From Jimgerdemannia flammicorona (Eukaryota): a stretch of 40,156 nucleotides of DNA. The notes under the pieces were generated by a model. It made no database searches, had not been told where the DNA came from, and was given only the letters and a program-made list of their open reading frames with translations. The DNA is taken from NCBI GenBank assembly GCA_003990765.1, contig RBNJ01000126.1:1-40156 (forward strand). The letters are read 5' to 3'. How positions within the stretch are numbered: position 1 is the stretch's first letter; every line of letters begins with the position of its first letter. Both the position numbers and the translations under genes were made by a program. Positions 1 through 40,156 of this stretch are shown one piece after another.

Positions 1-19
1 AAAAAAAAAAAAAAAAAAA
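1..19 (+). repeat. poly(A) tract, probably the tail of a non-LTR retroelement inserted in the Gypsy-A gag/pro region
   Basis: 19 A followed directly by tgctacctttggacag, which matches uninterrupted Gypsy-A copy 2 (minus strand, ~15800-15825). Confidence 0.55.
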
Positions 20-3000
20 TGCTACCTTTGGACAGCTAGTCGAAGTCTCTGCCTTCAGACAGCAGTTGAGAGTAGGACTTGCAACTACTGCCAAGAATCA
101 AGAGTACAAGATTGTAGAAGCTTACAATACACAGGAAGAATCTGAAAACTCAGATGAAGAATCTGAAGACCAGTGCAAGATATCAGCCTATACCCCATAT
201 CAGATTGAAGACTGTATCTTTGATACCATCATTGATACCAGTGTTGGAGAATGTCTTATGAGTAAGAAGACAATTGACTGCCTAGGCTGGGACATTGAAA
301 AGTCCACCAAGATAGTCTATATCACAGCAGATGGTACATGAGCTACCCCCCCTTGGCAAAATCCAAAAAGTCCCCATCAAGATAGGAGGAGCTACCATCC
401 CAGTAGATATGATTGTTACAAGCACCACCAACTATGACATCCTCATTGGCAACCAATGGCTTTACAAGGCCAAGGCCATCATTGATCTCAATGCCCAGAA
501 GATATAGATCAACTATAAAGAAAGAAAGGTATGAGTCTCTATCAATGTTCACAAAGAAGTCCTATCAGACATGGAAGAAGGAGATGAAGAAGACACAGAG
601 GTCTTCATATACTTGGTGAACAAGAACAAGAACAAGATATCCAAGCTCACAGATGAGCAGTGGTACAATAAGATCATCGATGGCTATGCTCCTCAAGGAA
701 GATGCCCCCATGGTACTAGGATGTACTGCTCTGAACACCTGAATAACTGCTGGTCCTATATCAGTAAAGTCAGGAAAATCTGCTAACAGAAACACAAGCA
801 AGAAGCCACTGAAGCAAAAAGAAAAGTTGAAGAAGATGACCAGCCCCCAGAGCTTCAAGCTGACAGTGATGATGAGGAGGAACAAGAATCAGACATTACC
901 CTCAAGGTCAAGAAGTTTCATCTTGAAGCCAAGATTCCAGAATATAAGACTGAAGGAGTCATAGGAATGGATCTTGCCAGCATTCAAGATACTACCCTTG
1001 AACCACAGACCATCACCCTACTTAGCACTAGAATTGGAGTCAAGTTACCAGAGAACTATGCTGGAATTATCAAGACTAGGAGTAGTCTGGCCAAAAGTGA
1101 AATCTCAGTTGAAGGAGGAGTAATTGACCCTGATTATACTGGCGAGATCTTTCTCATAGTTAGGAATTACAACCCTACTACCCCATTCGAAGTCAAGAAG
1201 CATGACAGGATTAGCCAGATGCTGATCCATGAAATCAAGAAGCCCAAGATTATAGAAGCCATCGAACTCATCAAGACTAAGAGAGGAGAACAAGGCTTTG
1301 GATCTACTGGAAGAGGAGCCTATGCTACCATCAAGATTACCAAACTCAAGCACAAGAAAGACAAGGACCAAAACAAGCATATATATACCATTAGAGAAAA
1401 CTTTCCTCTAGAAGAACAACTTCTCAAGATCCTGCATCAGAACAAAGAAGTACTTGCTATAGACTTTAGGAATATCCACAATCAAGAACTCAGGTACTAT
1501 TACAAAGTTGATACTAGTGATACCAAGCCCATCTACCAGAAAGCCAGACCTATACCACCTGTCTACAGAGAATGGCTGTAAGCAGAACTCAAGGAAATAG
1601 AAGAAGCTGGAATCATCAAGCAAGCTATCAGCCCCTGGACCTCACCCATTGTCCTTGCCCCAAAGAAAGGAAGTAAGCCTGGAGAGTTTGTGCCAAGACT
1701 CTATATTGACTACAGGAAGCTCAATGCCATCACCAAGAAGGATAGACAGCCCTTGCCAAATATTCAAGAAATCCTTACTATTCTTGGAAGCAAAGCCAAA
1801 TACTACACCACTTTGGATCTATTCTCAGACTTCCATCAGATTGGTCTCACTCAAGATGCCAGTGAGAAATCAGCCTACATCACACCTGACACCACCTATA
1901 TCTACCTGCAAATGCCATTTGGAATATACAATGCCCCAGCAAGTTTTCAGCAAATGATGAATAGAGTCTTTGGCAATGAGATTGGAAAATAGCTCTTTAT
2001 CTATGTTGATGATGTGATCATCTTCAGCAACACTATATGGGAATATGTCAATCACATACAACTAACCCTCAAGAAGCTTAAGGAGCATGGCCTCTACATC
2101 AAGCCCAAGAAATGTAAGTTTGCAGCTTAAGAAATCACCTATCTAGGATACCTCATCAATCAGACCGGAATCCACACAGACTCCATGAAGATTGAGACTG
2201 TTGTAGCCTACCCAAGACCCAGAACAACCACAGAAGTCCATGCCTTCCTTGGACTGGCCAGCTACTACAGAAGGTTCATTAAAGGATACTCTAACATTAC
2301 AGCACCTATCTATGAGCTACTGAAGAAGGAGACCAAATTTGAATGGACCAAGGAGTACTAAGAAATCTTCAATGAACTCAAGACCAGGTTGACCCAAGCA
2401 TCTATTCTCAGAAGACCAGATTGGAATCTAGAATTCATCCTGCAGACAGATACAAGTACTATAGGACTTGGAGCAGTCCTAGCTCAGAAGAAAGATAGAT
2501 ATGAATATGTCATCTCCTATGTAAGCTGAGGTACTCATAAAGTAGAACAGAACTATGAGTTATGTAAGCTTGAATGCTTAGCAGTAGTTTGGGCAGTAGA
2601 CAAGTTCTACTACTACCTAGCTGGGAAACACTTTACTATTCAAACAGACCATTCTGCTCTTGCCTGGCTATTCCACACTCTGAACCCCAAAGGAATATAT
2701 ACCAGATAGATCTACAGGTTGCAAGAGTATGACTGTACTGTCAAGCACTGCTCAGAAAGAACCAATACCAATACCAATACACTCTCAAGAATATCCTGAA
2801 ACACCCCTATCAAGACTATTTAACATGAATAAGGAGCTATACTATGGATTAATCAGCCACCTTGAGCAGCAGAAGATGCTCAACCACCTTGAACCCTGGA
2901 CAATCACCATCATCAACTGGACTTGGAAACAGTTTGAACTAGACAACACTATACTCAGAAAAGGAGGAAAGCTAGTAATACCTAAATATAAGAAGTATCA

Positions 3001-4072
3001 AGTAATGAAGGAAGTACACAAGCAAGGATATCTAGGAGGAACCAATACATACAACAAGGCAAGAAGAACTATATGGTGGCCCAAGATGGAAGAAGACCTG
3101 TACCAATTTGTCAAAGAGTGTAATAAGTGCCAAAAACAGAAACAAGATCAGTAAGACTAGGCACTTGGGTCATCAAGAATTGAGCCTATCCTCTTCCACC
3201 ACATTGCAATAGATATCATTGGACCACTACCAGTAACACTACCAGGAAACTGCTATATTATAGTTATTGTAGACCTCTTCACCAAATAGATAGAGGCAGG
3301 AGCATTACAAGAAGCCAATATCCTCTCTATAGCTGACTTCCTGCATCGAGAAATCATCTGCCACTACAAGACACTAAAGCAAATCACAACAGACCACGGT
3401 ACAGAATTTTTCAATAGATTACATGAGATAATGTATCAGAAATACAAGATCCAGCACATCAAGACCACCATGTACCACCCTTAAGGAAATGGACAGATAG
3501 AGAGAACCAATAAGACCCTCAAGAATATCCTAGTGAAGATCTCAGAGACATATGAGAATTGGGATAACTATCTCTCAACCACCCTCTCTGTCCTACAAGA
3601 CATATAGTCACAGAGTACACACTTCACCCCAAGGGAGCTGCTCTTCGGAGAAGAAGATTCTAATAGAACCTCAGCCACAAATATAGACCTAACTTAGAGA
3701 CAGATTGATGCAGAAATCTGGAGACTACACCAAATCAGGAAGAAGGCTGAAGATTACATCACCAAGTCACAAGCACTGATAAGGAAAAATGTGGAAAAGA
3801 ATCACAAGACCCTAGAATCCATTCGAATTGAAGAGAAGGTTCTACTATATCGAAATATGGTAGAAGCCTCATGGTCATGAAAACTGGAGCCCAAATGGGA
3901 AGGACCCTTCTACATGTAAGATATCAAGAGAACTACATTCTAGCTTAGAAAGATCTTAGGGACCATACTACCTACCATAGTACACAGAAACAGACTCAAG
4001 AAGTATCATAAACCTATATAAGAGAAGCAAAACATGATGACCACCCATAAGGTTCTAGTCTGTAAATCATAA
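20..4072 (+). pseudogene. pol: Gypsy pol polyprotein (PR-dUTPase-RT-RH-IN), inactivated by many premature stops
   Basis: ORF fragments 66-341, 571-786, 967-1581, 1690-1992 and 2729-3154 carry the motifs in Gypsy order; C-terminus HRNRLKKY...VCKS* ends at 4072. Confidence 0.93.
901..1314 (+). pseudogene. dut: trimeric dUTPase domain within pol, between PR and RT
   Basis: Motifs GMDL, TRSSLA, GGVIDPDYTGEI, DRISQ, RGEQGFGSTG. Confidence 0.93.
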
Positions 4073-4375
4073 CAGCATGTCCCATAACTAGCAGGCCATC
4101 TGTCTGGACCATTCTTTAAGAGATACAGCACTGGCAACTACTTATCCATGAGACTTTCGAAGTCAGAGGAGTTCAAACTATCAACTGATTGGTCAAGATC
4201 AGAATCAGGCCCTTGCTCTATATGAAGGGAGTGACCCTTTACCATCATACCAAAATACAAAGAGAAGATGCCAGCCTATAAACACTACTTTTTGACCCCT
4301 TGCCAGAGGTTATGGGATCAGCAAATTTTTCAGGGCTGGACCAATGAATAAGAATATTCGAGAAGATTCTTATTC

Positions 4376-4385
4376 AGGAGGAAGA
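4376..4385 (+). promoter_or_regulatory. polypurine tract
   Basis: aggaggaaga immediately 5' of the TGTAACA LTR start. Confidence 0.75.
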
Positions 4386-5964
4386 TGTAACAGTGACCTC
4401 AGAATAATGACATCAGCACAGGAGACAGTCTTTCCTTACAAGCCACCAGATTGGAGTACAAGAAGATCATATGGCATACAAGATGAGCAATAATGACCAA
4501 CTGTGAGTCATTGTGACCACAGTATGGTATCTTGAGGAATATAAAAGAAGGATCAAGGAACTACAGTAGCAGCAACCAACAAGACCCATCAATCCCAAAA
4601 TAGCTCAAAGACTTACTATAAACAAAATGCCTGCTGCCCATCAAACCTCAAGATCAAGGAACCACCAAGACACCTTAGTCAAAGAAAGGATGTTCCAAGA
4701 CATCAGAAGAGCCATGAGGACCTGCACAAGAAGAACTCCTAGTATCAACCTGGGTACTGGTGACCCTTATCACTATATCCTCTACCACTGTGAAATGGAA
4801 ACAAGGATCACCATTGCTACTGAATACCTCCAAATGTGGCAGAAATATGAAATAGGAAACCTTCTCTACTAGGAGTTCCCCCAGGCCAGCACTTAAGAGC
4901 TACAAGATATCATTTCTATGGATGTATATGAAATGAGGACAGCTAAGAAGATCCATCAGATCTTCAGATATGCACCATGGTTGATCCCCAACTTGGAGTA
5001 TATTAGAGTCTCAGATTTCAGAGACCTATCATCCTGCCATATCAATGTACTAGAAGCCAGGGTGGCTACAGAAGTCCAGTTCACTATCACTCTCAATAGT
5101 GATGAAGTAGAAGACTTCTGGCATCCTATCCTTCAGGATAACCCAGACCAATTCCTGTAAGGATTGATCTCAGTATTCTAAGACCCAAGCATCCAAGTTA
5201 GACCTCTCCAAGATTCCACATTTGTTCTCTATTTTATAGAAGAGAACTTCATAGATTAGAGAGCTCCAGATCTCCTTATTTCTGCTGCTGCCGAATATGA
5301 TGATGTCATCAGCAATAATGTCATCCTGCATGACTTTGACATATGTGAAATATGTGACCTATAAAACCTTGATGAAATGTTCACAGATCTCATCTCCTTT
5401 GAAGATATCCTGACCTCTGATGATGAGAATGAAGCTCCCATGATCCTGAATTTTCTGCTCTAAGTTCCTTGTTACACTGAATAATACCAGCACTGGCATT
5501 CTGAGGTGATACAAAATTGTTCCAGTACTGGCATTTGATGTAACACTGAATAATACTAGTACTGGTATTCTGATGTAACACCAAATTATATCAGTATCCT
5601 GAACCTATACAACCATCAGTACTGACCTTAGAACTTAGTAGTTTTTCCTATCCTGGCATCTTATTTTAGTTATTGGAATTTATATTTAGCTTTATATCTT
5701 AGCAACTATTGAATTATATTTTGTATAAATACCCCTCTTATTTCCTCTGAAATAAAGTCAGTTCCTCTCAGTACAATATACATACTTCCTTGCAAGCAAT
5801 CTAAGAGATAACAAGACAGTTTAAAGATAAGAAGTTTGAGAACTATAAGACCTTGGGAAGGTACTCCAATAAGAACTTGCTTATAACAAACTTGAGTTAG
5901 TCTAAGAGATATACCTTGAAGAGAATCTGGTATATTTGAAGAACTCAGCAATCACTATGTAACA
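4386..5964 (+). repeat. 3' LTR of Gypsy-A copy 1 (~1.58 kb, TG...CA)
   Basis: Starts tgtaacagtgacc after the PPT and ends cactatgtaaca. Homology to copy 2 starts and stops at the same points (26023 and 17155, minus strand). TATA-like gtataaatacc at ~5723; tandem ~30/59-bp repeats at 5470-5600. Confidence 0.88.
4627..5463 (+). pseudogene. LTR-encoded accessory ORF of unknown function (N-terminus may extend upstream)
   Basis: ORFs 4627-4872 and 4918-5160 and the continuation to 5463 share one frame. Homologous segments lie in the copy-2 LTR, which has CAA where this copy has TAA at ~4894. Confidence 0.75.
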
Positions 5965-6026
5965 ATAGTTAATAAAAAAAAAGTGGCTCAAAATCTCTGA
6001 ATTATATAGTTAGATAATAATCTGTT

Positions 6027-7152
6027 CTTTTTATTTTTTATTTTTATTATAGTTACTTGGACTTCTACTTTATTATCAACCAGTCTATGATATACTAATA
6101 CAGATGTATCCACCCCTCACCCAATCTTACAAAGAGCCTCCCCCCCCCTCTTCTCTTCAGAACATCACCATCTCCCTGATCATTCCAATCCTCCCCCCAC
6201 TCAGTCTACAAATCTTCTCCACAAGTCTTCTATAGAGCTCTCCTTTAGAGCTCCACCCCCACAACTAGTCATTTAAAAGATCCAGCACCAACTATTCCTA
6301 TCTTGTAATCTACAATCTAAGTACTAACTGCTGACTATCTTCAAATACATATAGCTAATATCTGGCAAGCTCAACCCAAATAGCCAGAGTCTACTTAAGA
6401 GTTAACCACTCATCACTAACTCCTTCCATCAACTTCTTTCAAAGATCACCCTACCTCTCATCCCCCCCCCTCTCACCTAGATGAGCATACTCTCATCTGA
6501 CCCTCAATAGTCCTCTAAAAGTCTTTTATAACTTCACACTCTCCCAATTAATACTCAGAGGTCTATACTATACCACTTTCTTACTTGATGTTAAGGTACT
6601 CCTTATACTCCAAAATACTCCCTTTTACCAAATATCCTAACTAATAGTTCAATATTACATTGTACTACAATAGTCTCCACTATACCACCCAGAACTTAGG
6701 GGAAATTCATCTCACCACCTGCTTACTCTAAGACCAAATACTATTTTAGTTCCACTCTTTACCTATCTCCACCTTCTGTTAAGTCTTAGACCACAAATCT
6801 CTTCTATACTTCTAAAGACATTCTATACTATCCTCTAAACTGAAATTATTCACTAATATATCTTCTAATAGAAGATAATTCTATCTCTATATCTGGGGTC
6901 TCCAGTCTATCTCCCTCTCATCATTCTATTATTAGAGATCAATTTGCCAAGCTCCATCAGCTACTCTCTATCAGAATCCCCAAAGTATATCTTCTGACTC
7001 CTCTTCAGTACTACCAGAGAGAGCAAATTATTAGATATACTACAGGGAGAGAAATATATCTCCTATATTCTCTACATAAGAAGTACCCCTCCTGGCCCCT
7101 CAGCCTCTAAAATCTGCTGAGCTACTTTTTATAACCTAGCCACCAAAATCTT
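6027..7152 (-). mobile_element. L1/Tx1-like LINE 3' fragment with internal deletion
   Basis: T-rich tail at 6027-6049, family 3' motif (atagttacttggact), decayed ORF2 C-terminus and RT piece KILVARL. Confidence 0.75.
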
Positions 7153-9822
7153 TATAACTAACTTATTATAAGTATACAACTCCTAAGCCACTGAAATTAT
7201 ATATCACTTTCTAAATAAATCTAGAAATTATATATAAGATTACAAAGCTGAGTCAACTTAAAGTTATAGAATATAAGATTTATATAAATGGAACCTTATC
7301 AATCAGAACTAAATACATATATACTGAGTACTTAGATATATTGAAATAGAGAACTACAATAAATAAAATAAATAATCACAACTCTTGAACATATATACAA
7401 CCATAACCACTGAGATCTACAACTATATCTATACTGATATTTGGAATACTATTATTAACTAAGCTCCACTCTCTCTACTCCTCATGAATATCTATAGCTT
7501 AGTACCTCTTTACTTTATAGAAGTCCAATAGAATACTCTGAACATGCTTAATGAAGTCTACCAAATTAGACAAATCTCAAGTTACTATCAGATCAGCTAT
7601 CTCCTAAAAGATATGGTCAAATATCACTATGATATAGACATTACTCAGATATCTCAATACTAGAAACTTATCATCTGCAAATACTAAGAACTCTTTTATG
7701 AATATAGTACCTTTATTCTCTATCTTTAAGTTACTACTACTGAAATAGTTATCACTCTATCCTATAGCCAAATTGATAATATAGTATAAGAACTCAATCA
7801 CAAGTATATTGAGTATATTCAAACTATAGACAGAACCTTCCTATATCCTAATGACCATATCCTACAAATGCTCCAAGTTGGATATACCATGAAGAATATC
7901 TATGATATAATTCAGTTTGATAATAATGAAGCAGAAGATAATGATCTCTCTGATACTAATATGATCTTCAGATAAGAATTCTTACTAGTTCTGATTATTC
8001 CACCAATCTTGCTGATGAACTTACAACAGTTCATAACTATCTATGAGACCTATTGGGATAATATAAGTGTACAATCTTCAAGCTACTGAAATTACACATT
8101 ACTCTCTGAATAAATCTGAAAATTATATACAAGATTATAAAGTTGAGTCAAACCAAAGTTACAGAGTACAAAGCTGAGTCAACTTGAAGTTACAGAATAC
8201 AAGATTTACATAAATAGAACCTTACTAATCAGAACTAAATATATATATATCAAGTATTAAGATGTATCAAAACAGAGAACTACAACAAATTAAACAAATA
8301 ATCCCAACTCTTAAATATATATACAAATATGACCACCAAGATCTACAACCACATCTGTACTAACATTTTGAATACTATTATCAACTGAGCCATACTCTCT
8401 CTGCTCCTCATAAATATCCATAGCCTGGTACCTCTCTATTTTGTAGAAGCCTGATAGAACACCCTGAACATACTCAGTGAAGCCCACTAAATTGAACAAA
8501 TCTCAAACTACTATTAGATTGGCTGCTTTCTAGAAGATATAGTTGAATATTACTATAATATAGACATTACCCAGATATCTCAATACTAGAAATTCATTAT
8601 TTATAAGTACTAAGAACTCTTTTATAAATATAGCACTATTATTCTCCATCTCTAAGTTACTACTACTGAAATAGTTACCACTCTATCTTATAGCCAAATC
8701 GATGATACATATGATATAAGAACTCAACTACAAGTATATCAAGTATGTTCAAACTATAGATAGAACCTTTCCATACTTTGATGACTATATCCTGCAAATA
8801 CCTCAAGTTGGATATATTATAAAGGATATCTATAATATAATTCAGTTTGATAATAATGAAGTAAAAGATAATGATCTATCTAATACTGACATGATCTCCA
8901 GCCAAGGATCTCTACCAGTTCTGATCACCCTACCAACCTTGCTAATAAACTTATAACAGTTTATAACTATCTATGAGATCTATTAGAATAATGATTACTG
9001 ATATGAGTACCAACCTACATTTACTCTCAATTACTTCAACTATAATGAAGAGACTGGAGAACACAATCTATACCTTCAGACAACTCTTGAGATTGAACTA
9101 ACAACTTTACTACCTAAGTATAAATAATACAAATAATAGCTACCAGCTTACTACAATCCAGTAATACATAGTGCCATAATCTATAGAAGATATACAGACA
9201 GTAAATCTGATAAAAGTAAAGATAATATACCTCTCTTTTACCCACCAACTCTATATCTAATATATGAGACAGATGATACTATCCTGTAGGATAGTAATGA
9301 GGTTCCAATATATTATTATCTGAGTGAATAGAGAGAAGTAATCTGAGAACTGCTCTTTTTAGATAACTACTTCATTAGAGATAATGTCATTGATGGTAAT
9401 GTCATTAAAGACTACCCAGATAGCATCTAAATCTATAGATAGCTTAGCAGTCATTAATATAGTTAAATTAGCCTTATATAATATAATTATATACTAACTC
9501 AGTAGTCAGACAATCTCTTAATATATCAGTTTACAATTATACTATATAACTGCACTCCAACTCAGCAAAATACTAAGTGCTATATCTATATTTAATATAG
9601 TCCAGATAGCCTCCTATTAGTATAAATACCCTCTCTCCCAAATCTTAGAATCTCAGACAGAAACAATTAAAACACAACTTCTGAGCATTTTTCCATAATA
9701 TTTCTTCACAACTACTCCTAGTATAGCAATATCATGAATAGTGAATAAACTTATTTAATAACCTACAAACCACTCTTAAGTAAATCTATATCTTATTAGA
9801 TTCCACTCTTAACTATATTACA
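7153..9822 (+). repeat. long LTR of Gypsy family B containing an accessory ORF relic and an ~0.9 kb tandem duplication
   Basis: Begins tataac (mutated tgtaac) and ends tattaca; TATA gtataaataccctctc at ~9620 is nearly identical to the family-A LTR TATA; followed by a leader and gag-like sequence. No second copy to confirm the ends. Confidence 0.6.
7167..8991 (+). repeat. tandem duplication, units 7167-8061 and 8062-8991
   Basis: Both units start tataagtRtacaa...ctgaaatta and end ctatgagaYctattRgRataa; differences are mostly transitions. Confidence 0.9.
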
Positions 9823-11940: not shown

Positions 11941-14900
11941 TAATCATGAGGCTTCTATCATATTTCAATATAGTAGGATCTTTTTTCCAATTTGAATAGG
12001 TTCTAGGATCTTGTAATTCTTTTCTACATTCTTCCTTATTAGTACTTATAACTTAATAATATAATCTTCTGTCTTTTTTCTAATTTAGTATAGTTTCTGG
12101 ATTTCTGAGTTAATCTATCACTAAGTTAGATCTAGATTTATAGCTGAGGTTCTATCAGAATCTTCTTCTCTAAAGAGCAGTTCTCTTGAGATAAAGTATA
12201 TACTTTGTAACCATATGTCTTATAAAATAGAGAGAGTAGTTGAGAGGTAGTTATCTCAATTTTTATATATATCTGAGATCTTGGCCAGGATGTTTTTGAG
12301 GGTCTTATTTATTCTTTCTTTTTATTCATTTCTTTGAGAGTGATATGTGGTAGTTTTAATATGCTAAATCTTATATTTCTGATATATTATCTCATAAAAT
12401 CTATTGACAAATTCTGTGCCATAGTCTGTGGTGATTTGTCTTAATGTCTTGTAGCAGCAGATAATTTCTCAATACAAGAAGTTAGTAATAGAGAAAGTAT
12501 TGACTTTTTGTAATACTTCTGCTTCTATCCATTTAGTAAAGAGATCTACAATAACTATAATATAGTAGTTTCCTGATAGAGTTACTGGTAGTGGTCTAAT
12601 GATATCTATTGTAATATAATAGAAGGGGATAGATTCAATTCTTAATAACCCAGATACCTGATCTTACTGATCTTTTTTCTGTTTTTGGCACTTATTACAC
12701 CTTTTAACAAATTGGTATAGATCTTCTTCTATCTTAGACCACTATATAGTTTTTCTTACCTTGTTGTATATATTAGTTTCTCCTAGATATCCTTATTTAT
12801 ACACTTTTTTCATTACTTAATACTTCTTGTATTCAGGTATGATGAGCTTTTCTTCTTTTCTGAGTAAGCCCCTCCTTCCTCATCTATGATTTAACCCTCT
12901 ACATGCTACCCCTAGTACATATGATTAATTCTCTCTTATGCAGATAATACTCAAATTGTTTCTAAGTTCAGTTGATGATAGTAATGGTCTAGGGTTCAAA
13001 GTAGTTGAATATCTTCTACTGCCCAAGATAGCTGATTAATCTATAATATAGCTTCTTATTTATATTAAATAGTCTTGATGAGAGTGTTTTGGGATATCCT
13101 TGAAAGTATATCAGCATTGATATTGGTTCTTTCTGAGCAGTGTTTAACAGTATAGTCATACTCTTACAGTCTGTAGATCTATCTACTATGTATATATTCT
13201 TTTAGAGTTCAGAGTGTAGAATAGCCAGGTGAGAGCAGAATGATCTGTTTGAATAGTAAAGTATTTTTTAGCTAGATAATAGTAAAACTTATCTACTGCT
13301 CAGACTACTGCTAAGTATTTAAGCTTATATAACTTATAGTTCTATTCTACTTCATAGATACCTTGGCTTGCATAGGAGATGATATATTTATATCTATCTT
13401 TCTTCTGAGCTAGTACTGTTCTAAGTCCTATAGTACTTACATCTGTCTATAAGATGAACTCTAGATTCCAGTCTGGTCTTCTGAGAATAGGTGCTTGAGT
13501 CAACTTGATCTTGAGTTCATTGAAGGTTTCTTGATATTTCTTGGTCTATTTAAACTTGATCTCCTTCTTCAGTAGCTTATAGATAGGTGCTGCAATGTTG
13601 GAGTATCCTTTGATAAATCTTTTATAATAAGAGGCCAGTCTGAGAAAGACATAGACTGCTGTAGTTATTCTGGGTCTTGGATAGACTACAATAGTCTCAA
13701 TCTTTATAGAGTCTATATAAATTATAGTCTAATTGATAATATGTCCTAGGTAGATAATTTTTTAAGCTACAAACTTATACTTCTTAAGCTTGATATAGAG
13801 ACTATACTCCTTGAGCTTCTTGAGGGCTAACTATATATAGTTGAAATATTTCTATACAGTGTTACTAAAGATGATCATATCATCAATATAGATAAAGAGT
13901 CATTTTTTAATTTCATTATTAAAGACTTTATTTATCATTTACTAAAAACTTGCTAAAGTATTGTACATTCCAAATGGTATTCATAGATAGACATAGGTAG
14001 CATTAGGTGTGATGAAGGCTGATTTCTTACTGGTATCTTAAGTAAGATCAATCTGATGGAAGCCTGAGAATAGATCTAAGATAGTATAGTATTTGGCTTT
14101 GCTTTTAAAGATAATAAAGATTTCTTGAATATTTAGTAAGAGCTGTCTATCCTTCTTAGTAATTACATTGAGCTTCTTGTAATCAATACAGAGTCTTGGG
14201 GCAAACTCTCCAGACTTGCTTTCTTTCTTTAGAGTGAGGATAATAGGTGAAGTCCAGAGACTAATAGCTTGCTTAATGATATCAGCTTCTTCCATTTCTT
14301 TGAGTTCTGCTTGCAGTCATTCTCTGTAGGCAAGTAGTATAGGTCTGGCTTTCTGATAGATGGGCTTAGTATCACTGGTGTCAACTTTATAGTAATACTT
14401 AGATTCTTGATTATAGATATTCCTGAAGTCTGTAATAAGTACTTCTTAATTCTGATACAAGATTTTGAGAAGTTGTCCTTCTAGAGAAAAGTTTTTTCCA
14501 ATAGTATATATGTACTTGTTCTGGTCCTTGTCTTTCTTATACTTAAGTTTAGTAATCTTAGTAGTAGCATAGGCTCCTCTTTCAGTAGATCTAAAGCCTT
14601 GGTTTTTTCTCTTAGTCTTGATGAGTTTAATGACTTCAGTGATTTTAGGCTTTTTAACTTTGAATGGAGTGGTGGAGTTGTGATTCCTAATTATAAGAAA
14701 GATCTTGCCAATGTAATTAGGATCAATAACTCCTCCTTTAATTGAGATTTTACTCTTGACCAGACTGCTTCTGATCTTGATAATTCCAGTATAGTTTTCT
14801 GATAACTTGACTCCAATTCTAGTACCAAGTAGAGTGGTGGCCTGTGGTTCAAGAATAGTATTCTGGATACTAGCAAGGTCTATTCCTATAGCTCCTTTAG

Positions 14901-17082
14901 TCTTATATTCTGAGATCTTAGCTTTGGGGTAAAACTTCTTAATCTTGAGAGTGATATCTGGTTCTTATTTCTCTATATCATCACTATCAGCTTAAAGCTC
15001 TGGAGACTAGTCATCTTCTTCAGCTTTCTTTTTTACTTCAGCTGCTTCTTGCTTGATGGATTTTTCTAACTTCACTAATATAAAATCAGTAGTCATTTAG
15101 GTATTTAGAGCAGTATATCCTAGCACCATAGGGGCATCTTCCTTAAGAGGCATAGCCATCAATGATCTTGTTGTACTACTACTCATCTGTAAGCTTGGTT
15201 GTCTTACTATTATTCTTATACACTGAGTATATAAAGACTTCTGTATCCTCTTTATCTTCTTTCTCTATATCTGATAGTACTTCTTTGTAGACATTAATAG
15301 AGGCTCATATCTTTCTTCCTCTATAGTTGATCTGCATCTTCTGGACATTGAAGTCAATAATAGCTTTGGTCTTATAAAGTCATTGATTACCAATGAGAAT
15401 GTCATAGTTGGTAGTACTTACAATTATTATATCTACTAAGATGATAGTTCTTCTAATCTTGATGAGAACTTCTCAGATCTTGCCTAGAAGAGTAGCTTAT
15501 ATATTATCTGCTGTAATATAGACCATTCTGGTGGATTCTTCAATATCTCAGCTTAGGCAGTCAATTGCCTTCTTACTTATAAGGTATTCTCTAGTACTAG
15601 TATTGATAATAGCATCAAAGATATAATCTTCAATCTGATATTAGGTATAGGCTGAGGTCTTGCACTGATCTTCAGATTCTTTGCCTGAGTCTTCTTGTTC
15701 ATCTTCTTATATATTGTGAGTTTCTATGATCTTATACTCTTGGTTCTTGATAGTAGTTACAAGTTCTGCTCTCAACTACTGTCAGAAGGTGGAGACTTCT
15801 GCTAGTTATTCAAAAGTAGTATTGATCTTTTATTTCTTGAGATCCTTATAGATATCATACTAATGGACCTTGGTCTTGCACAGCTTCTGTTCTTTCTTAC
15901 TTTCACTTTCTTCTAAGACTGGAGTAGTATCTTCAATAATTTAGTAGATAGCTTCATCTAACTTTATATTTTGATCAATCTCCTCAGATTGGGTCTTACT
16001 TTAAATAGTGATAGTTGGGGTCTTTTTTGGTCTTCTAACTAGCTTGCTATTGTCCTTCTTGTTATAGAGCTTGGACTAAGTTCTGGTATCTTTAATAATA
16101 GGGTAGAATTCAGACTCTTTATAGTATTTTTCATCATCAGTATCACTAATCTCCTTGATGACTACTGCATTGGTTTGTTCTTGAGTTCTAGTAATATTAT
16201 TTGGTTGGACTCTATACCTGGTTCAGTTATGCAATTCTTTATATAGTAGCCTTCTTCTCTATATTTGAAGTATATAATAGTATATTCTTCTATAGTAGCT
16301 ACAAACCTCTATACTGATCTCTTGTTAGTACTTTATACTTCTCTAACAACATTACCAAGGTATGCAGTCATCTTGGCAAACTGCTGAGTGAGTTCTTCTA
16401 CTGAGTTGGCTTTAGCTATCTTAGGAGTAGGTGGGGATGGTTGTCTGTTGAGAGCTGTGGTAGGTATGATACTAGTTGGCTTTAGTGACTCCATCTTGAT
16501 GCCAGTTATCCTTTCTATTGAGTGTTCAGTAGGATATCTGGCTGTTCAATATCTCTGTACAAAGACCACTTTCTGATCAAGAATCAGAGCAGCTGGAGTA
16601 GACCAGATTACTAGGGCAATTTCATAGCAAACTCTTTTTAGGAAGATTGAATCAGCTATCTATTTCTTAAGGGTATCATTGTAGTTAGCTAAGATAATCT
16701 AGTAATAGATTTAAGTATAAAATGAGTTAGAGTCTTCATTGAGTCCTTGGCAGATAGTATTGAGTTGATCTTTAAGAGCTTGCTTGATCTCTTTAGTATA
16801 GTATATAGTTTTGAGAAAGTTCTTCATATTAGTAAGTTTGGCTATACTATTGTTAACAATAGTGGCTGCATTAAACTTATCTCTGGTAGGTCCTCTGAGG
16901 CTGATAGATAGGAGTACTAATTATACTTCAACATTAAGAGCTCATATAGTGGTAAATTGTTCAAAGTCTTTAATGAAGGTCAGAATTGACTCTTTAGTAG
17001 TAAATCTATAGAATGTAGATAGATGTATTTCTATTTTGTCTTGAATTCTTACAGGGGTAACTTTTGTAGTCAGGGTAGTTAT
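11941..17082 (-). pseudogene. gag-pol of Gypsy-A copy 2
   Basis: Decayed CCHC zinc knuckle at ~16225-16280, then PR, dUTPase (42-bp deletion), RT (FAPRLCIDYKKLN), RH and IN; heavily mutated. Confidence 0.9.
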
Positions 17083-17669
17083 TGTAGTAGTTGTTTTTTA
17101 TTTAGCTTAAAAGTGAGAGATCCTAATAGTATTATTAGCTAATAAGTACTAAGTTATCATATAGTGGGTGCTGAGTTCTTTAAGTATATCAGATTCTCTT
17201 CAAGATATATCTCTTAGACCAACTATAAGTTTCTTATAAGCAAGTTCTATTAGAGTATCTTTCCAAGGTCTTATAGTCCTCAAACTTCTTATCTTTAAAC
17301 TGTTCTGTTATCCCTTAGATTTACTTGCATAGAATTAAGTAGAGGACTGGAACTTTTATACTCTTGAGTAGTTGAGTACTTGAATGCTTGAGTGTTTTAA
17401 TACTGACTTTATTTTAAAGGAAATGAGAGAGGTATTTATACAGAATATAATTTAATAATTACTAAGATATAAAGCTAAATATAAAATCCAATAATTAAAT
17501 AAGATATTTAAATATAGAAAACTTCAGATTATAAGTATAAATTCAAGTGCCCATATAATTGATTGTATAAGATCAGAATGCTGGAATAATTTCTGACAGT
17601 TATATGAGATCAGAATACTGGAATATTTAAGTATTCAAAAAAATAGTTATATAAATAAATTAGAGTAGA

Positions 17670-19186: not shown

Positions 19187-19526
19187 AAATAAATTAGAGT
19201 AGAATGTTCAAAATCCTGGAGGTTAGAGATAGGATATCTTTAAAGAAAATTAGATTAGTGAATGTTTCTATAAGCATTTCATTTATTTTGCATATTTCAC
19301 ATATATCAAATAACAAGATGATATGTATCTTTATTAGTGATATCATTATGTTTGATAGTGGTAAGAAAGAGATCAGGGGCTCTCTAATCTATGATGTTTT
19401 TCTTTACAAAGTAGGAGACAAAGGTGGAATCTTGAGGGGGTCTGACCTGAATACTGGGGTCTTAGAATACTGAGATTAATTCTTACAGGAATTGATAAAT
19501 TATCCTGAAGGATGGGATTTTAGAAC

Positions 19527-22500
19527 TTTTTTTTTTTTTTTTATGGTCACTTAGACTCCTTTATTACCTATATTTATCTAATACAACTATGACCCTATAC
19601 AATAACTGTGACAACTACAAAGTACAAAGAAAGGCTTATTAGTCAATACTCTCCTTTTACTACACCTCTCTATCATCAAGCACTAGGTGCTCTCGACTCC
19701 TCTGTACAATATTCTATATCTTTCTCAAGACCCCTACTACTGTCTCTTTCCCTGATACCACTACTCTTATGCCATCTCCTGGAGTAGCTACCTCCACTGC
19801 TCCACTAATTCACTAATTCCCATCCATAGATCTCACTCCAACACCCATTACTAATATACTGCTATCAGGACCTAGACTTCTAAGATATAGCCCAGACTAC
19901 TCCAGACATTCCCAGTCTCTCCCACCAGCTATCACTTGACCACCTGACTAGTGGGGCCTCCTGGTTGCCTACTCTCAGAATTTCAATAATCTTCCAATGT
20001 CTGCCAATACCTCTCTATATCTGAACAAGCTACCAAGACATGCTCTAGCATCTGAACCATCTTCTTATCTACCTCACTATACTACTTATATTCCCTACTA
20101 CCTTCTATCTTCATCCATCCTATTCAGTAGCCCAGTATCACATTCTTTTTCAAGAATTGCCACCACACAACTCAATACTTAGATAGTACAACCTTGAGCA
20201 AGGATGCCCCCCAACTCCAGACCTAACTCTACTCTCAATCTTCACCAAACCCAGCCTTCTGCCAATCTACTGGCCACCTCTCAAGTGGGCCAGTTCTGAT
20301 CTATTCCATAGCCTCAGACAGAGAGTACTCTGTCAACTAGTAGTCACTAATGTGAAGGCTCTCTAGTTACTACCATCTCTACTCAGGATCCTCCCTCTCT
20401 CTCAGCTCCAGACCTATTAAACTTATTACCAGCCAGGCCTCTACAATACCCCACCAGAACTCCTTATACCACAATCTGCTGACTCTTCCCACCTGAAGCA
20501 AACCTTATATATCCTTCCAAACCTCACCATGGAGGCAGAACCTGATCTCCCAATTATCCATAGCCAGCCTGCCCCAACCATCCTCCCCTAGTTCAGCTAA
20601 TTGACAACTCCACCAACCCCAGAGTATCTTCAACTGTCTCCTGAAGTCCACCAGCCTCAGACCTCCATTTACTGTCTACAGTACTACTATCTCTCAACTA
20701 ATCTGCAGCCACATAGCCATCCTTCCACCACTTTCTTCAGCCTCTATACTACTTATCCAGAAAAATCCAGGTGGTATCTCAAATACCACAACTTAGGTAA
20801 CCAGTATATATTTAAAACTACAATTCTTCTCATCAAGGAGAAACTCCTTTCTGACCAATCTGTCAAAGCTCCTTTCTACTTTTGTATCATACTACACCAC
20901 TACTCCATTAGCAGTACCATTACATATACTGAAAACCAGATACCCAAATATTGAACTACTTTTCCTGTGGTCACTATTTGTCCAAAATACCCATTCTCTC
21001 CCAGACCAGCTCCAAGCTCCATTGTCTCACACTTGCCCCAATTCAATTTTGCTCCTGTCAGCCTCTCATACTGTCCAACCTCTTCCTGTAGGCCTTTCAT
21101 ATCCTCTAAGCAACTGAGCCTGACCACCATGTTATCTGCAAAACCCCCAGCTTCCAGACCATATTCTCCATCTATAACCCAGTCAACTATCCCTTCAATC
21201 AAACTAACAAAGGCTCTAAGGACAAAATATAGAGCAGAGGGGAAAGAGGATCCTCCTGTAGCACACCTCTACTCAAGGCAAACTCTGGGCCACACCACCC
21301 ATTCATCAGTACTGCTGCTTGGTAGTCTTATACTAGATTCATCAATCTTCAAGCATCTACTGCACCAAATCTTGCCTTCTGCAATACTGCCTTCAAATAG
21401 TTCTACTGCACTCTATAATATACTTTTTCTTGATCCAAAAAGACCATCCACCCATCAACTTACTAGCTCCTGCAGCTCTCTAGAACATTCTGCACCCAGG
21501 CAGTACTGTCTCTAATCTGCTTCCTCTTTATGAAGCCTCACTGGTCCTCACTCACCAAACAGCCAATCCACTACTACATTCTCTCAGCCAGAATTTTAGA
21601 CACCAACTTCCTGTCCATGTTCAGTAACATAATAGGTCACTAGTTCTACCACATATATCAATCTCCTTTCTCTTTATACAGCAGAGAGATAAACCTTAAA
21701 AAACTATTGCCAATTTAGCAGCCTTCTCTCAAAATGAAGTTTGCCATTTCTACTAACTATCTACCAAACTCATCCTAGAACTCCTTCCAGAATTTCCAAG
21801 ACAGCCCATCCTCCCCAGATAATGAATCAGCCTATACATTCCTCAGCACCTCCAATACCTCTTCAAGGATCACCATGTCCATCACTATCTCATCTATCTC
21901 AGGAACTGCTACCACTGGTCAACTGTCAACTAAATTGTCATTATTCTCCTATAAGACCTCTCCCTCCATAAGCTCTCCTTCATCCTACTAGAGAGCTTAC
22001 CATTGTCCAGAGACCTCTCTAAGTATATCTGCAATTTCAGTAACCTCAATACTATTCTCCCACAGTACTGAAGTCTAGCTATATTACACTCTTCTGACCT
22101 TCAATATATCTGATAAATATTTGGTAGACCACTCTCCTTCTTCCAACTGTCTTGCCTATAGCCTTACCAACAGACCATCTACAACTCTATTCTCAGCTGT
22201 CTTTAGATCCAACTTCAACTCAGCCACCTCTATGGCCAACTGAGAGTATCTCTCTCCTGATAAGTTTTCCCCTTTCAAAAACCTCAACTACTATCACAGC
22301 CCTCACTCTACTCTCCTCTATTTATCCTTCTGCTCTTTTCCAGCTACTTCCCCAACATCATACCAATAAGTATCTGTCAAATGTTTAAATTTACCCCACC
22401 ACTGCTCTATCTGCTATCCACTCTCCTTCCACTACATCACTTTCTGCCTTATAATAGCTACAAATTGTTTCTGCTCCACCTGCCTTCTGAGTAGAGCTAT

Positions 22501-25290
22501 ATTGAGTTGCCAGTGACCTCTATCCCCACTGACTATCTGAAATCTTCCACACACCTCCACTCTCCAATGATCTGACTAAGGGCACTACTGTACCAGTATA
22601 TTGCTCTAGTATTCTGCCACCAGAATCTAATCAATTCTCATTCCCACTAGATTCTTACCAATGAGATACCACCTAGTGAAGGGCTCTGGCTTCTCTCTCT
22701 GATGCTACCAGATACTATCAATCAATCCCATATCTCTCTCAACCTGAAGCCATCATGAGAGCCCAGCTGAGATAGCTACTCCAACTCTACCATCAGGTCT
22801 ATCTAATGTCCTATCACATACTATATTAAAGTCCTCCCCCAGAATGTCCAGCCCAATCTCCTCTTGGTCTCCCTAATCTAGCCAGCCCTCCACTCATTAG
22901 TTTCACTCTCTGCCAACTGCCAGAAGATAAATAGAGTCCACAATCAGTCTATCCTTAGCTCCTCTTTTCAATCTACTCTATATCAATTGATCATTATATA
23001 ACTCCATCTCTATTAGCTCACCTCTTCCCACACTCACCAGAATGTCCACCTGTTCATTTCAACCTATACTGCCATACTACTCCTTGCTCTATTTCTCATA
23101 ATCTTGCTTACCATAGAATCAAATATCCTGAAGAAATACTACATTATATCTTCTGATCTTTAGCCAATGAAATAGATACTGCCACTTCACTCTATCTTAC
23201 AGACTATTGACATTTTATGATAAGATATACAGACTATTTATCATTATCAGTAGAAATGTTTAGAGCTCTATAGAGATTGCCACCACCTTCTCAGTCTGAC
23301 CACAGATTATTTCCTTTTGTTCCTTGCAAATAGTCCTCCAGATACAGGCTCCATTCACACTATCACAGAAAGTATCCATTCTCTCAGATACCACTTTCCT
23401 GATATCAGCCATTTGGTTCTCATCTATATTATACTCTTCATCATCTAGAAGTACTGCTACCATCACTGTTACCAACTTTGATCCCTGCATAGTAATATTG
23501 AGAAATCTCTCCCAAGCCTCCTGAGATCCATTAAACACATCCACTTCTTTGATATCTTCCTCCACAAGTTCTTCAAGCACCACTTGATACCAGCTGTTAG
23601 CTGTCATCACTAGAGGCCCAGGGGTGGCAGGTCTAGGGGTCCTACTCAACTCCTGTAGTATCTCTCTATCTGCTAAAATATTAGAGACCACATCCATCAG
23701 ATCATCCTCCTTTAGTGACCTTCTCCAGCTGTACTATCTCACCTGCCTCTGAACACTCCCAATGAACATTTGCTGCCTCTATTATATGGATGTCCTTCAA
23801 CTGAGTCTCTGGTACTATCTCAGTAATATTCTCAAAACCCCCTTCTCTCACCTCCTCCTTATCAGCCTACTTCTCCTTTACTAGTACATGAGCTGAGGTC
23901 TCCACACTACCCAGCTGCAAAAAGGATACCTTGGCTGTCTCCACCTCCTCTATCTGACTCTTGGCTGCCTCTATCCTTGCCTCTTTCTCCACTTTCAAAA
24001 TCTGGAGAACTATCTGCAGATATTCTCAGTTTGCTTTCTGCCACCTCTTCCTCCTCTCATCTGTCAGAATCCAGATTTAGTCCTTGGTGAACTTCTCCCA
24101 TCTCCTCTTTTGCAAATCATTCACAGCCTCTCTCTCCTCCAGAACAAGTAATAATTCCTCCTCCTTCTGTTCAGATCTCTTTCTTCTCCATACCTTGTAC
24201 TTCTGACCACTGATACAAATCACCTCTGGTCAGTCTATGACCTCCTTGTCCTCCAGTTGTATCATAATCTCACAGTTGTCATTCCTCAACTTAGTCCTCT
24301 CTCAGAATATGAATCTAAAATCAACTATCTCACTAAAGCCCCCTAGCACCTCTACCACAATCCCCTTAGTCTCCTGTCTCCCCAATATCAGCAACCTCTC
24401 TACCACCAGATATACAGCATACAGATTCTACCTCAAGTACTTTACTATCCCAATCTTGATATTCTTAACTACCAACTCTTTCTCCAGAGTCTTCACTATC
24501 TCCTTCTTCTCCACAAAGCCAATCTCTACTGCCTCTGCTGACAGAATAAATTTCAGAGACTCTGCAATAGTAACCTCCTCACCCACTAGCTACAAAACCT
24601 CTCTGATAGATATATTCAGCTTCAAGAAGTTCACCAAGATTGCCTACATTAATACTGATTTATAAAAGAAAGGTCACACCATCAGTTCACCAGAGTTCAC
24701 TGCCATTGTCATCTTCTTCTTATTATTTAAAACTCTGGCAGTCACCCCTTCAGCCCCTACAAGCCCACCAGTAGTTCTTCCACTAGCCACTGGCTCAACT
24801 CCAGGAATACAAGTCCTAACTATCATATCTCCAGACTCCTGTCTCCTGCTAAGCACCTGACCAGTCAACTGATCAGTTACCTGACTCCTCCCCCTATCAA
24901 TACTATGTTCTCTCTGCCCTACCCTCATGGGCCTAGCAGTAGTCCTTCTGTCCCCTACTACAGTATGCTAAGTTTCGATACCAGTAGGCCTCCCCTGACC
25001 ACCTGCTCCACCAGCAGTAGCACCAGCCCTAACTACTACTGCAAAACTCTTAGAGAGGCCCAGGCCAGGCCTCCTCCTCTCTAAATACTCAGAGCTTGAT
25101 GAATCTTGGATCACCATCAGATGAAAACTCAATGGATTTTGATGAAACTTATTGTATACTATTGTTAGACTCTTGCTACATCTGATACATCTAAGAATGT
25201 GAAGTGAAAACTTGAAAGCATATTGCTTTTCACATAAGGATGCTTGTGTGGCTTAGCTTGGTCAGTTTGATTTGAGCAAAAGAAGTCTCC
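19527..25290 (-). mobile_element. full-length L1/Tx1-like LINE (~5.8 kb), decayed
   Basis: poly(T) at 19527; TSD tgggattttagaac (19513-19526) vs tagaatttcagaac (25291-25304), 3 transitions; ORF1 ~25117-23260; ORF2 from ~23244 with APE start (ILS*NVN) and RT motifs (FADN, YLGI). Confidence 0.9.
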
Positions 25291-26407
25291 TAGAATTTCA
25301 GAACTCTTCTATCTCATTACTTTTGAGAGTAATGGTAGATTGGACTTCTGTGACCACTATGGCTTCTAGTGCATCTATGCAGCAGACTAACAATTCCTTG
25401 AAGTCTGAGACTCTGGTATACTCTAAGTTAGAGATTGATTAAGATACATAACTGAAGATCTGATAGATCTTTTTAGCTACTCTCAATTTATATATATCTA
25501 TAGAGATATCATCTTGTATCTCTTGAAGGCTGATCTGAGAGAATTCCTAGCAGAGAAGGTTTCCTATTTTATATTTCTGCTATATCTAAAGGTATTTAGT
25601 AGCAGTAGTAATCCTTATCTCTATTTCATAGCAGTAGTGGGTAAAGTGGTAAGAGTTATCAGTATCTAGGTTGAGACTAGGAATCCTTCTGGTATAGGTC
25701 CTCATAACTCTTCTGATATCTTGGAATATTCTTTCTTAGACTGAGAAGCCTTGGTGATTTCTAGACCTTGCAGTTTAGTGAGCAGTAGATATTTTATTTA
25801 TAGTAAGTCTTATTTGAGTTACTACTACTATGGTTTCTTAGTTCTTCTTTTATATTCCTTGAGATATCTATTTTGTAGTCATCATGACTTATAGTTTATT
25901 ATTATTGCTCATCTTGTAGTCTGGGTGAGTCATACTATATAATCTTCTTGTACTCTAATCTAGTGGCTTATAAGAAAAGACTGTCTCCTATAATGATATT
26001 ATCATTCTAAGGTCACTGTTACAATATATCTATTTTTACTTACTCTTTTTTCTCACTCTCTTTTATTCACCCATTATCTTCCATTTTCTGCTTCTGATAC
26101 CTTATCTAATTTCTCAATTTCTCTCTCATCTCTCTACCTCTATCTAATTATTAGTATAAGTTATATTATATATATAGCTGAGTATTATAATATAATGAGT
26201 AGTTACTCTTGATTTTTTGTCATATTCTTGTACTTTAGTTTATTATATATAAGTTAGTTTCAGCTATCACATATTGTATTATTTACTTATTCTAATTCTA
26301 AGAGATACTGCAATCTTTATTTACTTATATATACTTAGTATTTATATATATTTGCTTTATAGCTAAGTATACTTACTAAGTATGAGACTAAGTTAGATAG
26401 CAATTCT

Positions 26408-28050: not shown

Positions 28051-28824
28051 TTTATTGACTAGTCATACATAATACTTCTTAAGTTAGTTTTGATAAATAG
28101 TAGTGGGGATAATTGTGTCTGAGAGTTTTCATAGCCAAAAGGTAGTTCCTTTTATATCTTGTACTAGGTAAGGTCCTTTTCTCTTAGGCTTCAGTTTTTG
28201 TGACCATGAAGCTTCTACTATATTTTAATATACTAGAACTTTGTCTTCTATCTTGATAATCTTCAGTGGCTTATAAATCTTTTCTGTATTATTCTGTTAT
28301 AGAGTCTATACCTTTATTATCTAATTCTCAGCCTTTTTCTAATTTGATATAGTCTCTGAATCTCTATTTTTATATAGTGTCTCTATTAGATGATAAGATT
28401 TCTTGGAAACTTTCTTCTCTGAATAGTATTTTCTGAGGGGTAAAATATGTACTTTGTGATTAGATATCTTATAGAGCAGATAATACTATTGATAGATAAT
28501 AATACTAGTTTTCATAGTTATTACAAATCTTAGCAATGATATTCTTAAGAGTTTTATTAGTTCTTTCTACTTATTTATTTCCTTGAGGGTAATAGGCTAT
28601 AGTCTGAATGTTCTGGATCTTATACTTCTTATAGAGAATTTCAAAGAACAGGCTTACAAATTCTGTTCCTCTGTCTGTAGTTATTTATAGTGGAGTCTTG
28701 AATCAGTAGATAATTTCTTTATAGAAGAAATCAGCTATTGACTATATATTGACTTCTTTGAGAGGTCCTGCTTTTATCTATTTCATAAAAAGATCTACAA
28801 TAAAAATGATATATTAGTTGCTAA

Positions 28825-29363
28825 TAGTGCTCCTAATAAGTCAATTTAATCTAGATTGGATTCAGATTGATTCAGATTAAATCTCATCCAGATTAACCAT
28901 TGTTTTGATTTCCAAATTAGACAATTAAATATTTATATTAATAACTTGATGAATAATCATCCAAATTTGATAATCTTGATATCATTTGAATATCCTTAAT
29001 AAGGCCTTTATAATGATATCAAGATCATTGAAATCAGATTATATATTGCTGAGTTATTAAGGAAAACATCTGACTTGCCAATTTTGGAAATTATTCAACT
29101 TGCTGATTTTGGAAATTATATCAAAAGAATGTTTTCTTTAATATCTTAGCAACATATAATCCAATTTTAATGTTCTTAGTATTATTAGAAAGACCTTATT
29201 AAGAGCTTTTAAATGATACCAAGATAATATAAATTGGATAATTATTCATCAAGTTATTGATGTAAATATTTAATTGTCTAATTTGGAAATCAAAACAATG
29301 ATTGATTTGAATCAATCCAGATGGGATTCAAATCCCATCCAGATCAACTTGTTCAGAGCACTA
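28825..29363. mobile_element. hAT-type foldback MITE, family B (539 bp)
   Basis: TIR TAGTGCTC...GAGCACTA; 8-bp TSD gttgctaa/gttgctgg; long internal inverted arms; interrupts Gypsy-C integrase. Confidence 0.88.
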
Positions 29364-34476: not shown

Positions 34477-34537
34477 TCACATTACACCAACTTCAAGCAA
34501 CAGTTTTTCAACACAACTCAGGAAAGCGACTATCAAC

Positions 34538-36454: not shown

Positions 36455-36485
36455 GTTGGGGCCTCTATTACAACATTTCTTCAAT

Positions 36486-40090: not shown

Positions 40091-40156
40091 GTGCTTGGGC
40101 GGGGGGAGGTTGAGGGGGGGGGGTTGGGCCCCTGGGGCATTGGTTGGGGGTAGGGG

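Follow-up and report, generated by a model that had tools for sequence, protein, structure and literature searches.

Can a retrotransposon's long terminal repeat (LTR) hold a protein-coding gene of its own? The question is raised by a 40,156-nt stretch of Jimgerdemannia flammicorona DNA (contig RBNJ01000126.1; hereafter the window, which always means the whole stretch), in which a Ty3/Gypsy element with a dUTPase ends in a 1579-nt LTR that contains a long, interrupted reading frame. Positions 4627-5463 are a dead copy of a genuine protein-coding gene that lies wholly inside this LTR. The gene is held to be real because uninterrupted relatives exist in protein databases, because 502 nt of the frame align without a gap between two copies of the element, and because the ratio of nonsynonymous to synonymous substitution rates (dN/dS) is 0.33 in frame. 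In the complete explanation favored here, to which a probability of about 0.6 is assigned, the frame is the relic of a gene located in the unique 3' (U3) part of the LTR of a dUTPase-bearing Ty3/Gypsy element, expressed from its own short mRNA and encoding a nuclear regulator that acts in trans.

A coding relic and its intact relatives

The gene lies in two LTRs of the window, the 3' LTR of one element (copy 1) and the interrupted 5' LTR of a second (copy 2), placed as follows.

4386..5964, + strand: 3' LTR of copy 1, 1579 nt, TG...CA; both ends are the homology limits with the 5' LTR of copy 2
4627..5463, + strand: LTR gene relic, 278 sense codons and TAA, with in-frame TAA or TAG at codons 82, 90, 178, 185, 211 and 246
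25291..26023, - strand: 5' LTR of copy 2, first segment, with the LTR start, the leader and gene-relic codons 1 to about 167 (25792-25291); 26023-25291 equals copy 1 4386-5128
19227..19518, - strand: 5' LTR of copy 2, second segment, with the remainder of the gene relic, frame-shifted, to its stop codon; 19518-19231 equals copy 1 5123-5411
17161..17505, - strand: 5' LTR of copy 2, last segment, with TATA, AATAAA and the unique 5' (U5) part, followed by gag; 17505-17161 equals copy 1 5658-5958

The frame begins 241 nt inside the LTR, ends 501 nt before the LTR end, and has six internal TAA or TAG codons and no TGA. Across 4627-5463 the three plus-strand frames contain 7, 13 and 27 stops and the minus-strand frames 10, 14 and 28. 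Taken from the window sequence alone, the coding case is only moderate: of 5000 shuffles, 0.96% contained, among their six frames, one with no more than 6 stops. That the frame is a chance open stretch in A-rich repeat DNA is refuted by the uninterrupted relatives, which reach E = 6e-137 in a profile search and 5e-111 with a single sequence, together with the in-frame dN/dS and the absence of indels over 502 nt, and its remaining probability is negligible.

Relatives were found by three routes: a word-indexed protein search (416 candidates, of which 4 at E <= 0.01), HMMER run in full against 1.84 billion representatives (5 at E <= 0.001) and a family-profile search (12 at E <= 0.001 among 8000 scored candidates). 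Several of them are uninterrupted, including P0006, a protein of 271 residues which is 68% identical to the window frame and shares its start and its C-terminal end. More distant subfamilies are represented by P0112 and P0114, at 41% and 30% identity, and by P0115, P0116 and P0118, at ~30%; three subfamilies in all have common blocks along residues 20-215. Every full-length member (five members, three subfamilies) opens with MP..R, and this shared start places the initiation codon at ATG 4627 and makes 4386-4626 an untranslated leader. The initial annotation, which was made from the DNA letters alone, had left the N-terminus unresolved on account of indels near 4475-4525; the start is now given by the intact relatives, and those indels fall in the leader and not in the protein.

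Copies 1 and 2 can be compared over 502 nt of the gene frame, where 121 positions differ and gaps are absent; in the adjoining parts of the LTR the alignment includes 50 and 48 gap positions. The differences are distributed over codon positions 1, 2 and 3 as 34, 33 and 54. Nei-Gojobori dN/dS for the same pair is 0.33 in frame and 0.87 and 0.67 out of frame, and the corresponding values for pol are 0.235, 0.60 and 0.76. Since both copies decayed neutrally after insertion, the ratio during the constrained phase before that was at most 0.33. Both marks of a coding past that had been suggested as checks, dN/dS below 1 and a bias by codon position, are thus present, the second to a modest degree. 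Together with uninterrupted relatives of the same start and end, these values bear out the central proposal of the initial annotation, a protein-coding accessory gene inside the LTR.

Five motifs, WQKYEIG, TAKKIHQIF, IPNLE, DFRDLS and CEIC, had been singled out as conserved. All five occur in the frame of copy 1; in copy 2 the frame persists through codon 167 (25792-25291), and the CEIC stretch is present near 19300. CEIC is common to both window copies but absent from the intact relatives, and a metal-binding role for it is rejected on this ground. A tblastn search of the window with 9 family proteins matched only the two LTR copies. The gene is present in 2 of 2 LTRs of the family formed by copies 1 and 2 in the window and in 12 database relatives.

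All 12 relatives are 'ena' or 'jgi' records on contigs of 0.6-4.8 kb, called "hypothetical protein" or given no name, and a scan of prokaryote genome contigs for relatives gave 65 pattern matches, none of which was confirmed. The origin of the records bears on another explanation, in which a host gene or gene fragment was picked up by the LTR of one lineage and had no role in the life cycle of the element. LTR elements can transduce host sequence (PMC7264820, in excerpt), and a related element in the window, described below as copy 3, seems to lack the gene. None of the relatives comes from a named genome, however, even though the same database yields named eukaryotic pol proteins; the start and the block structure are the same across three subfamilies, down to about 30% identity; and the selective constraint is similar to that of pol. 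Capture of a host gene is therefore considered improbable.

The LTR and its element

The window is a nest of mobile elements, whose layout was obtained by self-comparison and Pfam scans. The parts of copies 1 and 2 that adjoin or interrupt the LTRs are listed here.

1..4385, + strand: copy 1 internal region with protease, dUTPase, reverse transcriptase (RT), RNase H and integrase; decayed, 5' end lost at the window edge
4346..4375, + strand: hairpin with 10-nt perfect arms directly 5' of the polypurine tract (self inverted match 4345-4376), partly kept in copy 3
4376..4385, + strand: polypurine tract aggaggaaga, adjoining the LTR; the homologous copy 3 tract is at 27602-27559
11945..17160, - strand: copy 2 internal region, gag to integrase, 3'-truncated
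19519..25290, - strand: foreign insertion of 5.8 kb that splits the gene of copy 2, with a poly(A) run at its end and an imperfect flanking direct repeat of about 14 nt

Pfam families follow one another along copy 1 as RVP_2 (about 364-520), dUTPase, RVT_1, RT_RNaseH, Integrase_H2C2 and rve, which includes the protease-RT-RNase H-integrase order of Ty3/Gypsy (Metaviridae) pol. The dUTPase domain (PF00692, E = 3.8e-27 in copy 1) is also found in copies 2 and 3. The pol frames of copy 1 are interrupted by TAA or TAG, by TGA and by frame changes. The layout around the LTRs is that of Ty3/Gypsy elements as well, with TG...CA ends, a polypurine tract 5' of the 3' LTR and gag after the 5' LTR. The gag-like frame, which has a decayed CCHC knuckle, begins just downstream of the LTR of copy 2; Pfam returned no gag match for it, and no tRNA complement is recognisable in the heavily decayed sequence after this LTR. 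No Pfam family of any kind, a chromodomain included, was found in the three frames of 3700-4385, where decay could hide one. The hairpin at 4346-4375 may serve as a signal for plus-strand priming or for RNA 3' processing.

The LTR of copy 1 opens with TG at 4386, straight after the polypurine tract, and closes with ...tgtaaCA at 5964. Homology with copy 2, on the minus strand, starts at 4386/26023 and ends at 5958/17161. Copy 1 has this segment 3' of pol, copy 2 has it 5' of gag, and its ends coincide in the two, which identifies it as an LTR. Within the internal regions, 15838-11945 of copy 2 is 80-81% identical to copy 1. Homology of copy 2 becomes contiguous at 5128/5123 once the 5.8-kb insertion is removed; the poly(A) end and the flanking direct repeat of the insertion suggest a retroposon-like origin. 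No Pfam domain was detected in six frames of the insertion, its minus-strand frames contain 129-160 stops each, and the plus strand has a strong excess of C. The second gap in the LTR of copy 2 holds a 9-nt minisatellite (17900-18892, unit GGCAAGATG, about 113 units) between the gene end and the promoter part, and copy 1 has a 35-nt repeat at the same place. The main lines of this architecture had been put forward in the initial annotation and stand: the LTR at 4386-5964, with its polypurine tract, TG..CA ends and homology limits shared with copy 2; the dUTPase-Gypsy type of the element; and the single-frame coding relic, given there as at least 279 codons, upstream of a TATA box.

A different placement of the LTR start would turn the gene into an ordinary third open reading frame (ORF) between pol and a short 3' LTR of ~495 nt, which would start from the TGTTACA/TGTAACA repeats near 5470, and would leave the segment upstream of copy 2 as the tail end of a second, truncated element. 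Extra ORFs between pol and the 3' LTR are commonly described (passages of PMC7264820), the 35-nt repeats at 5470-5596 open with the heptamer that also closes the LTR, and copy 3 appears to have a 473-nt LTR. Yet no purine tract precedes 5470, whereas there is one at 4376-4385, and homology with copy 2 sets in on the base adjoining it. The short LTR would require a coincidental truncation of the other element at exactly this base, and nothing like 4266-4385 precedes 26023 (global score 9, shuffle mean 7.3). In copy 3, too, the tract is followed directly by the homologue of 4386-4400, the LTR start. The comparison with copy 3 and the absence of a purine tract at 5470 thus argue against an LTR that starts in the repeats, and this arrangement is very unlikely, somewhat more so than the capture of a host gene.

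A sister element with a tentative short LTR

Copy 3 is a dUTPase-Gypsy element at 28069-32360 on the minus strand, ~66% identical to copy 1. It has a homologous hairpin and polypurine tract at 27602-27559, with the homologue of 4386-4400 directly next to it. Its end, ~470 nt beyond the tract, aligns marginally with 5663-5964 of copy 1 (z = 3.5; score 64, with 65 the highest value among shuffles); with copy 2 the score is 79 and the highest shuffle value 75. Copy 3 is tentatively assigned a 473-nt LTR (27558-27086), too short to contain the gene; a partner LTR for it was not found in the window. If this assignment is right, the sister LTR would have the same ends and the same promoter part, and the gene-bearing 1.1 kb would represent a gain or a loss within U3.

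Putative promoters, poly(A) signal and U3

Four candidate signals can be recognized in the LTR of copy 1.

4540..4547, + strand: upstream TATA-like box TATAAAAG, followed after 79 nt by the ATG; ggaatataaaagaag also retained in copy 2
5470..5596, + strand: 35-nt tandem repeat, 3.7 copies, after the gene stop codon and before the downstream TATA box; copy 2 lacks this stretch
5724..5731, + strand: downstream TATA box TATAAATA, 261 nt after the gene stop codon
5751..5756, + strand: the sole AATAAA of the LTR, 288 nt after the gene stop codon

The LTR thus has two TATA-like boxes and one AATAAA. The downstream box and the AATAAA are about 210-240 nt before the LTR end, the usual site for the genomic promoter and poly(A) signal, and their position implies that the gene lies in U3. 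The box at 5724 is presumed to drive the genomic RNA, and that at 4540 is a candidate promoter of the LTR gene; the repeats at 5470-5596 are candidate enhancer repeats. The repeat units open with TGTAACA or TGTTACA, and TGTAACA is the heptamer found at both LTR ends. Rfam gave no match at E <= 1 over 4000-6300.

The two boxes could also be read in another way, with the genomic RNA starting at the upstream TATAAAAG (4540) and the frame forming the first ORF in a very long repeat (R) region or leader instead of a U3 gene. This box is conserved in both copies and stands close to the ATG. Three considerations make such a leader about as unlikely as the capture of a host gene. R plus U5 would reach about 1.4 kb; the sole AATAAA (5751), 1.2 kb from the cap in the 5' LTR, would cut the genomic RNA short; and it is the stretch around the downstream TATA box that shows a marginal match to the gene-less LTR of copy 3. 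The preferred reading remains a gene in U3, with the genomic promoter downstream of it.

Decay of the two copies

In 139 alignment columns the close intact relatives have the same residue, and copy 1 shares it in 121. Read in the standard code, its 18 private residue changes can each (18/18) be explained by a single C-to-T or G-to-A change. Observed-to-expected CpG ratios are 0.06 in 1-5964 (copy 1), 0.00 in 11945-17505 (copy 2) and 0.19 in 34193-40156. Between copies 1 and 2, 142 of 254 C/T differences are at CpA and 87 of 173 G/A differences at TpG. The C-to-T and G-to-A changes, the TAA and TAG stops and the depletion of CpG together characterize the LTR gene as a deamination-type relic in both copies. 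The gene of copy 2 is damaged further: its ATG is lost, its frame is shifted and the 5.8-kb insertion splits it. The extreme CpG depletion and the CpA/TpG transitions point to methylation-linked or repeat-induced point mutation (RIP)-like deamination of repeats.

An alternative genetic code was considered and set aside. Translation table 6 lengthens the pol and LTR frames, yet pol is still broken by TGA and by frame changes, and copy 2 has 12-19 such codons per pol frame and 16 in the LTR frame. The alternative code is rejected in favor of decay because the stops fit the general pattern of C-to-T and G-to-A change.

The predicted protein

Proteins of the family represented in the window have about 271-278 residues. 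Charge is unevenly distributed, with a net +8 over residues 1-60 and -14 over residues 211-270 of P0006. The highest 19-residue hydropathy is 0.59-1.07 in five members tested (0.74 in P0006); none of the five has a hydrophobic segment that could act as the signal peptide or transmembrane helix expected of an env-like ORF, and the protein is predicted to be soluble and without a membrane segment. An AlphaFold model has helices over residues 18-185 and disorder over 217-271, and that of a member of a second subfamily has the same helix order and then a tail without structure; the quality of both models is poor (pLDDT 52.8 and 58.0, pTM 0.40 and 0.53). The tail varies in sequence between subfamilies and is always acidic, with scattered F, L, I and W. 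The models and the composition suggest an architecture of a basic N-terminus, an alpha-helical core and an acidic, disordered tail studded with hydrophobic residues.

Searches for relatives outside the family returned little. Pfam assigned no family to the window protein or P0006, and over all 13 family rows it gave ATG5_HBR alone, in 3 of 13 rows with a best E of 0.028. A profile search of PDB sequences had no match at E <= 10, Foldseek against PDB and BFVD had none at E <= 0.001, and the best ESM Atlas scores, 0.83 and 0.85, are under the 0.9 level of a lead. Modeling and fold comparison, which had been recommended at the outset, therefore delivered helical models for family members and no fold match. 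By these searches the protein family appears to be small and to have no recognisable relatives elsewhere.

A proposed function in trans

During each round of retrotransposition, U3 is copied from the 3' end of the RNA into both LTRs. A gene located in U3 is carried at the 3' end of the genomic RNA, is doubled in each cycle and persists in the solo LTRs that are left by LTR-LTR recombination. It is proposed that the gene was expressed from a short mRNA of its own, whose 5' end would lie beyond the conserved TATAAAAG (4540) and whose 3' end would be set by the only AATAAA of the LTR (5751); splicing from the genomic transcript would be an alternative route. The product would act in trans as a nuclear regulator of the element, with the basic end used for targeting and the acidic-hydrophobic tail for activation. 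A transactivator-like regulator, resembling acidic activators in composition, is the most likely kind, although this more specific assignment is tentative and considerably less probable than the reading as a whole; the composition is also compatible with an adaptor for RNA export or for a host factor. A bolder version, in which the LTR is a self-contained cassette of TATA box, ORF and poly(A) signal that encodes new nuclear regulators able to activate their own LTR promoter or to blunt host silencing, is more doubtful still.

Several observations weigh against the proposed U3 gene and its role. Its intact relatives are known from protein sequence alone, and not from a setting in an LTR or beside dUTPase-Gypsy pol. 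The function is inferred only, the models being poor and the Pfam, PDB, Foldseek and Atlas searches having produced no lead, and U3, both promoters and the poly(A) site are read from motifs alone. No element in the window has both LTRs, copy 1 being without the 5' and copy 2 without the 3' LTR; both copies are dead, hence there is no sign of current activity. The codon-position bias of the frame is modest, and the frame is the least conserved part of the LTR, with 121 of 502 nt differing between copies 1 and 2 versus 34 of 299 in 5658-5958. Finally, the apparent lack of the gene in copy 3 would make it dispensable for this group of elements.

If the gene is expressed from the LTR, solo LTRs would be gene carriers and not mere promoters, and pipelines that mask LTRs as non-coding would miss a protein family. 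If the cassette version is true, a trans factor would be supplied from dispersed sites by every LTR, also by solo LTRs, and a 'complex' regulatory layer in the style of retroviruses would have evolved independently in Ty3/Gypsy elements. With three or more subfamilies, and with neither a known domain nor a modelled fold, the family is a clean target for learning what an element may gain from such a factor.

Other elements in the window

All remaining ORFs that were examined in the window either belong to mobile elements or lack a domain. Two copies, 89-94% identical, of a ~425-nt unit with internal inverted repeats, similar to foldback elements or miniature inverted-repeat transposable elements, are found at 29989-30413 and 33789-34214, and one of them interrupts the pol of copy 3 between RNase H and integrase. 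The stretch 34193-40156, G+C-rich (45-56%) and G-skewed, resembles a non-LTR retrotransposon, with a reverse transcriptase (RVT_1) but no integrase; decay has gone much less far in it than in the Gypsy copies. The A+T-rich stretch that separates copies 1 and 2 contains a tandem duplication of ~930 nt with 80% identity (7164-8992).

Comparison with known systems

Genes in or near U3 are familiar from retroviruses. The sag gene of mouse mammary tumor virus (MMTV), a vertebrate retrovirus, encodes a superantigen, a type II membrane glycoprotein, from an ORF of about 300 codons in U3, and nef of human and simian immunodeficiency viruses (HIV and SIV) and bel/tas of foamy viruses are 3' accessory genes that extend into U3. 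In foamy viruses one end of the transactivator is acidic and activating, and an internal promoter drives its gene. To our knowledge, a conserved protein gene wholly inside an LTR has been found only in a few vertebrate retroviruses.

MMTV sag is the closest parallel in position, being a complete sense ORF within U3 and hence present in both LTRs, with the proviso that the U3 limit is read here from motifs. It differs in that the protein of the LTR gene has no hydrophobic segment and no Pfam match, and in that the element is an env-less Ty3/Gypsy. In contrast to the LTR gene, which lies entirely inside the LTR, nef and bel/tas merely overlap U3; their products have no sequence or fold similarity to the LTR-gene protein, in which residue 2 is P, so that a Nef-like myristoylation site is absent. 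The foamy-virus transactivator, with its similar size, acidic end and own promoter, is the model for the mechanism proposed above.

Among elements other than retroviruses, the nearest counterparts are the extra ORFs (aORF or ORF3) of plant and bdelloid rotifer LTR retrotransposons, which belong to the internal region, for the most part downstream of pol and ahead of the 3' LTR, or else upstream of gag (PMC7264820, PMC5408684; both in excerpt). As described in these excerpts, such ORFs share with the LTR gene the character of a family-specific extra gene of unknown or non-env function on a gag-pol element, conserved among copies, and in bdelloid rotifers they occur on dUTPase-bearing elements (part of PMC5408684). 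Gypsy elements with a dUTPase are known in fungi from Postia placenta (PosPlaTy3-5), Phanerochaete and Tuber (Tmt1), and the dUTPase of the basidiomycete PosPlaTy3-5 is between protease and RT (PMC2864245, portions), the position that it also occupies in copy 1. A figure legend in the same portions names an 'add. ORF' of unknown function, whose position is drawn in the figure. The window element differs from fungal dUTPase-Gypsy elements in that no chromodomain was detected in it; its nearest named pol relatives are 38-41% identical.

A search of open-access and preprint literature found no account of an LTR-internal protein gene in a non-retroviral element, and matches to 'LTR-encoded' were all retroviral, MMTV papers among them. 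Against the aORF and ORF3 genes, the distinguishing trait of the LTR gene is its place, not in the internal region but 241 nt inside the LTR. By its position and its relatives, it appears to be an accessory ORF of an LTR retrotransposon in a new location and from a new protein family.

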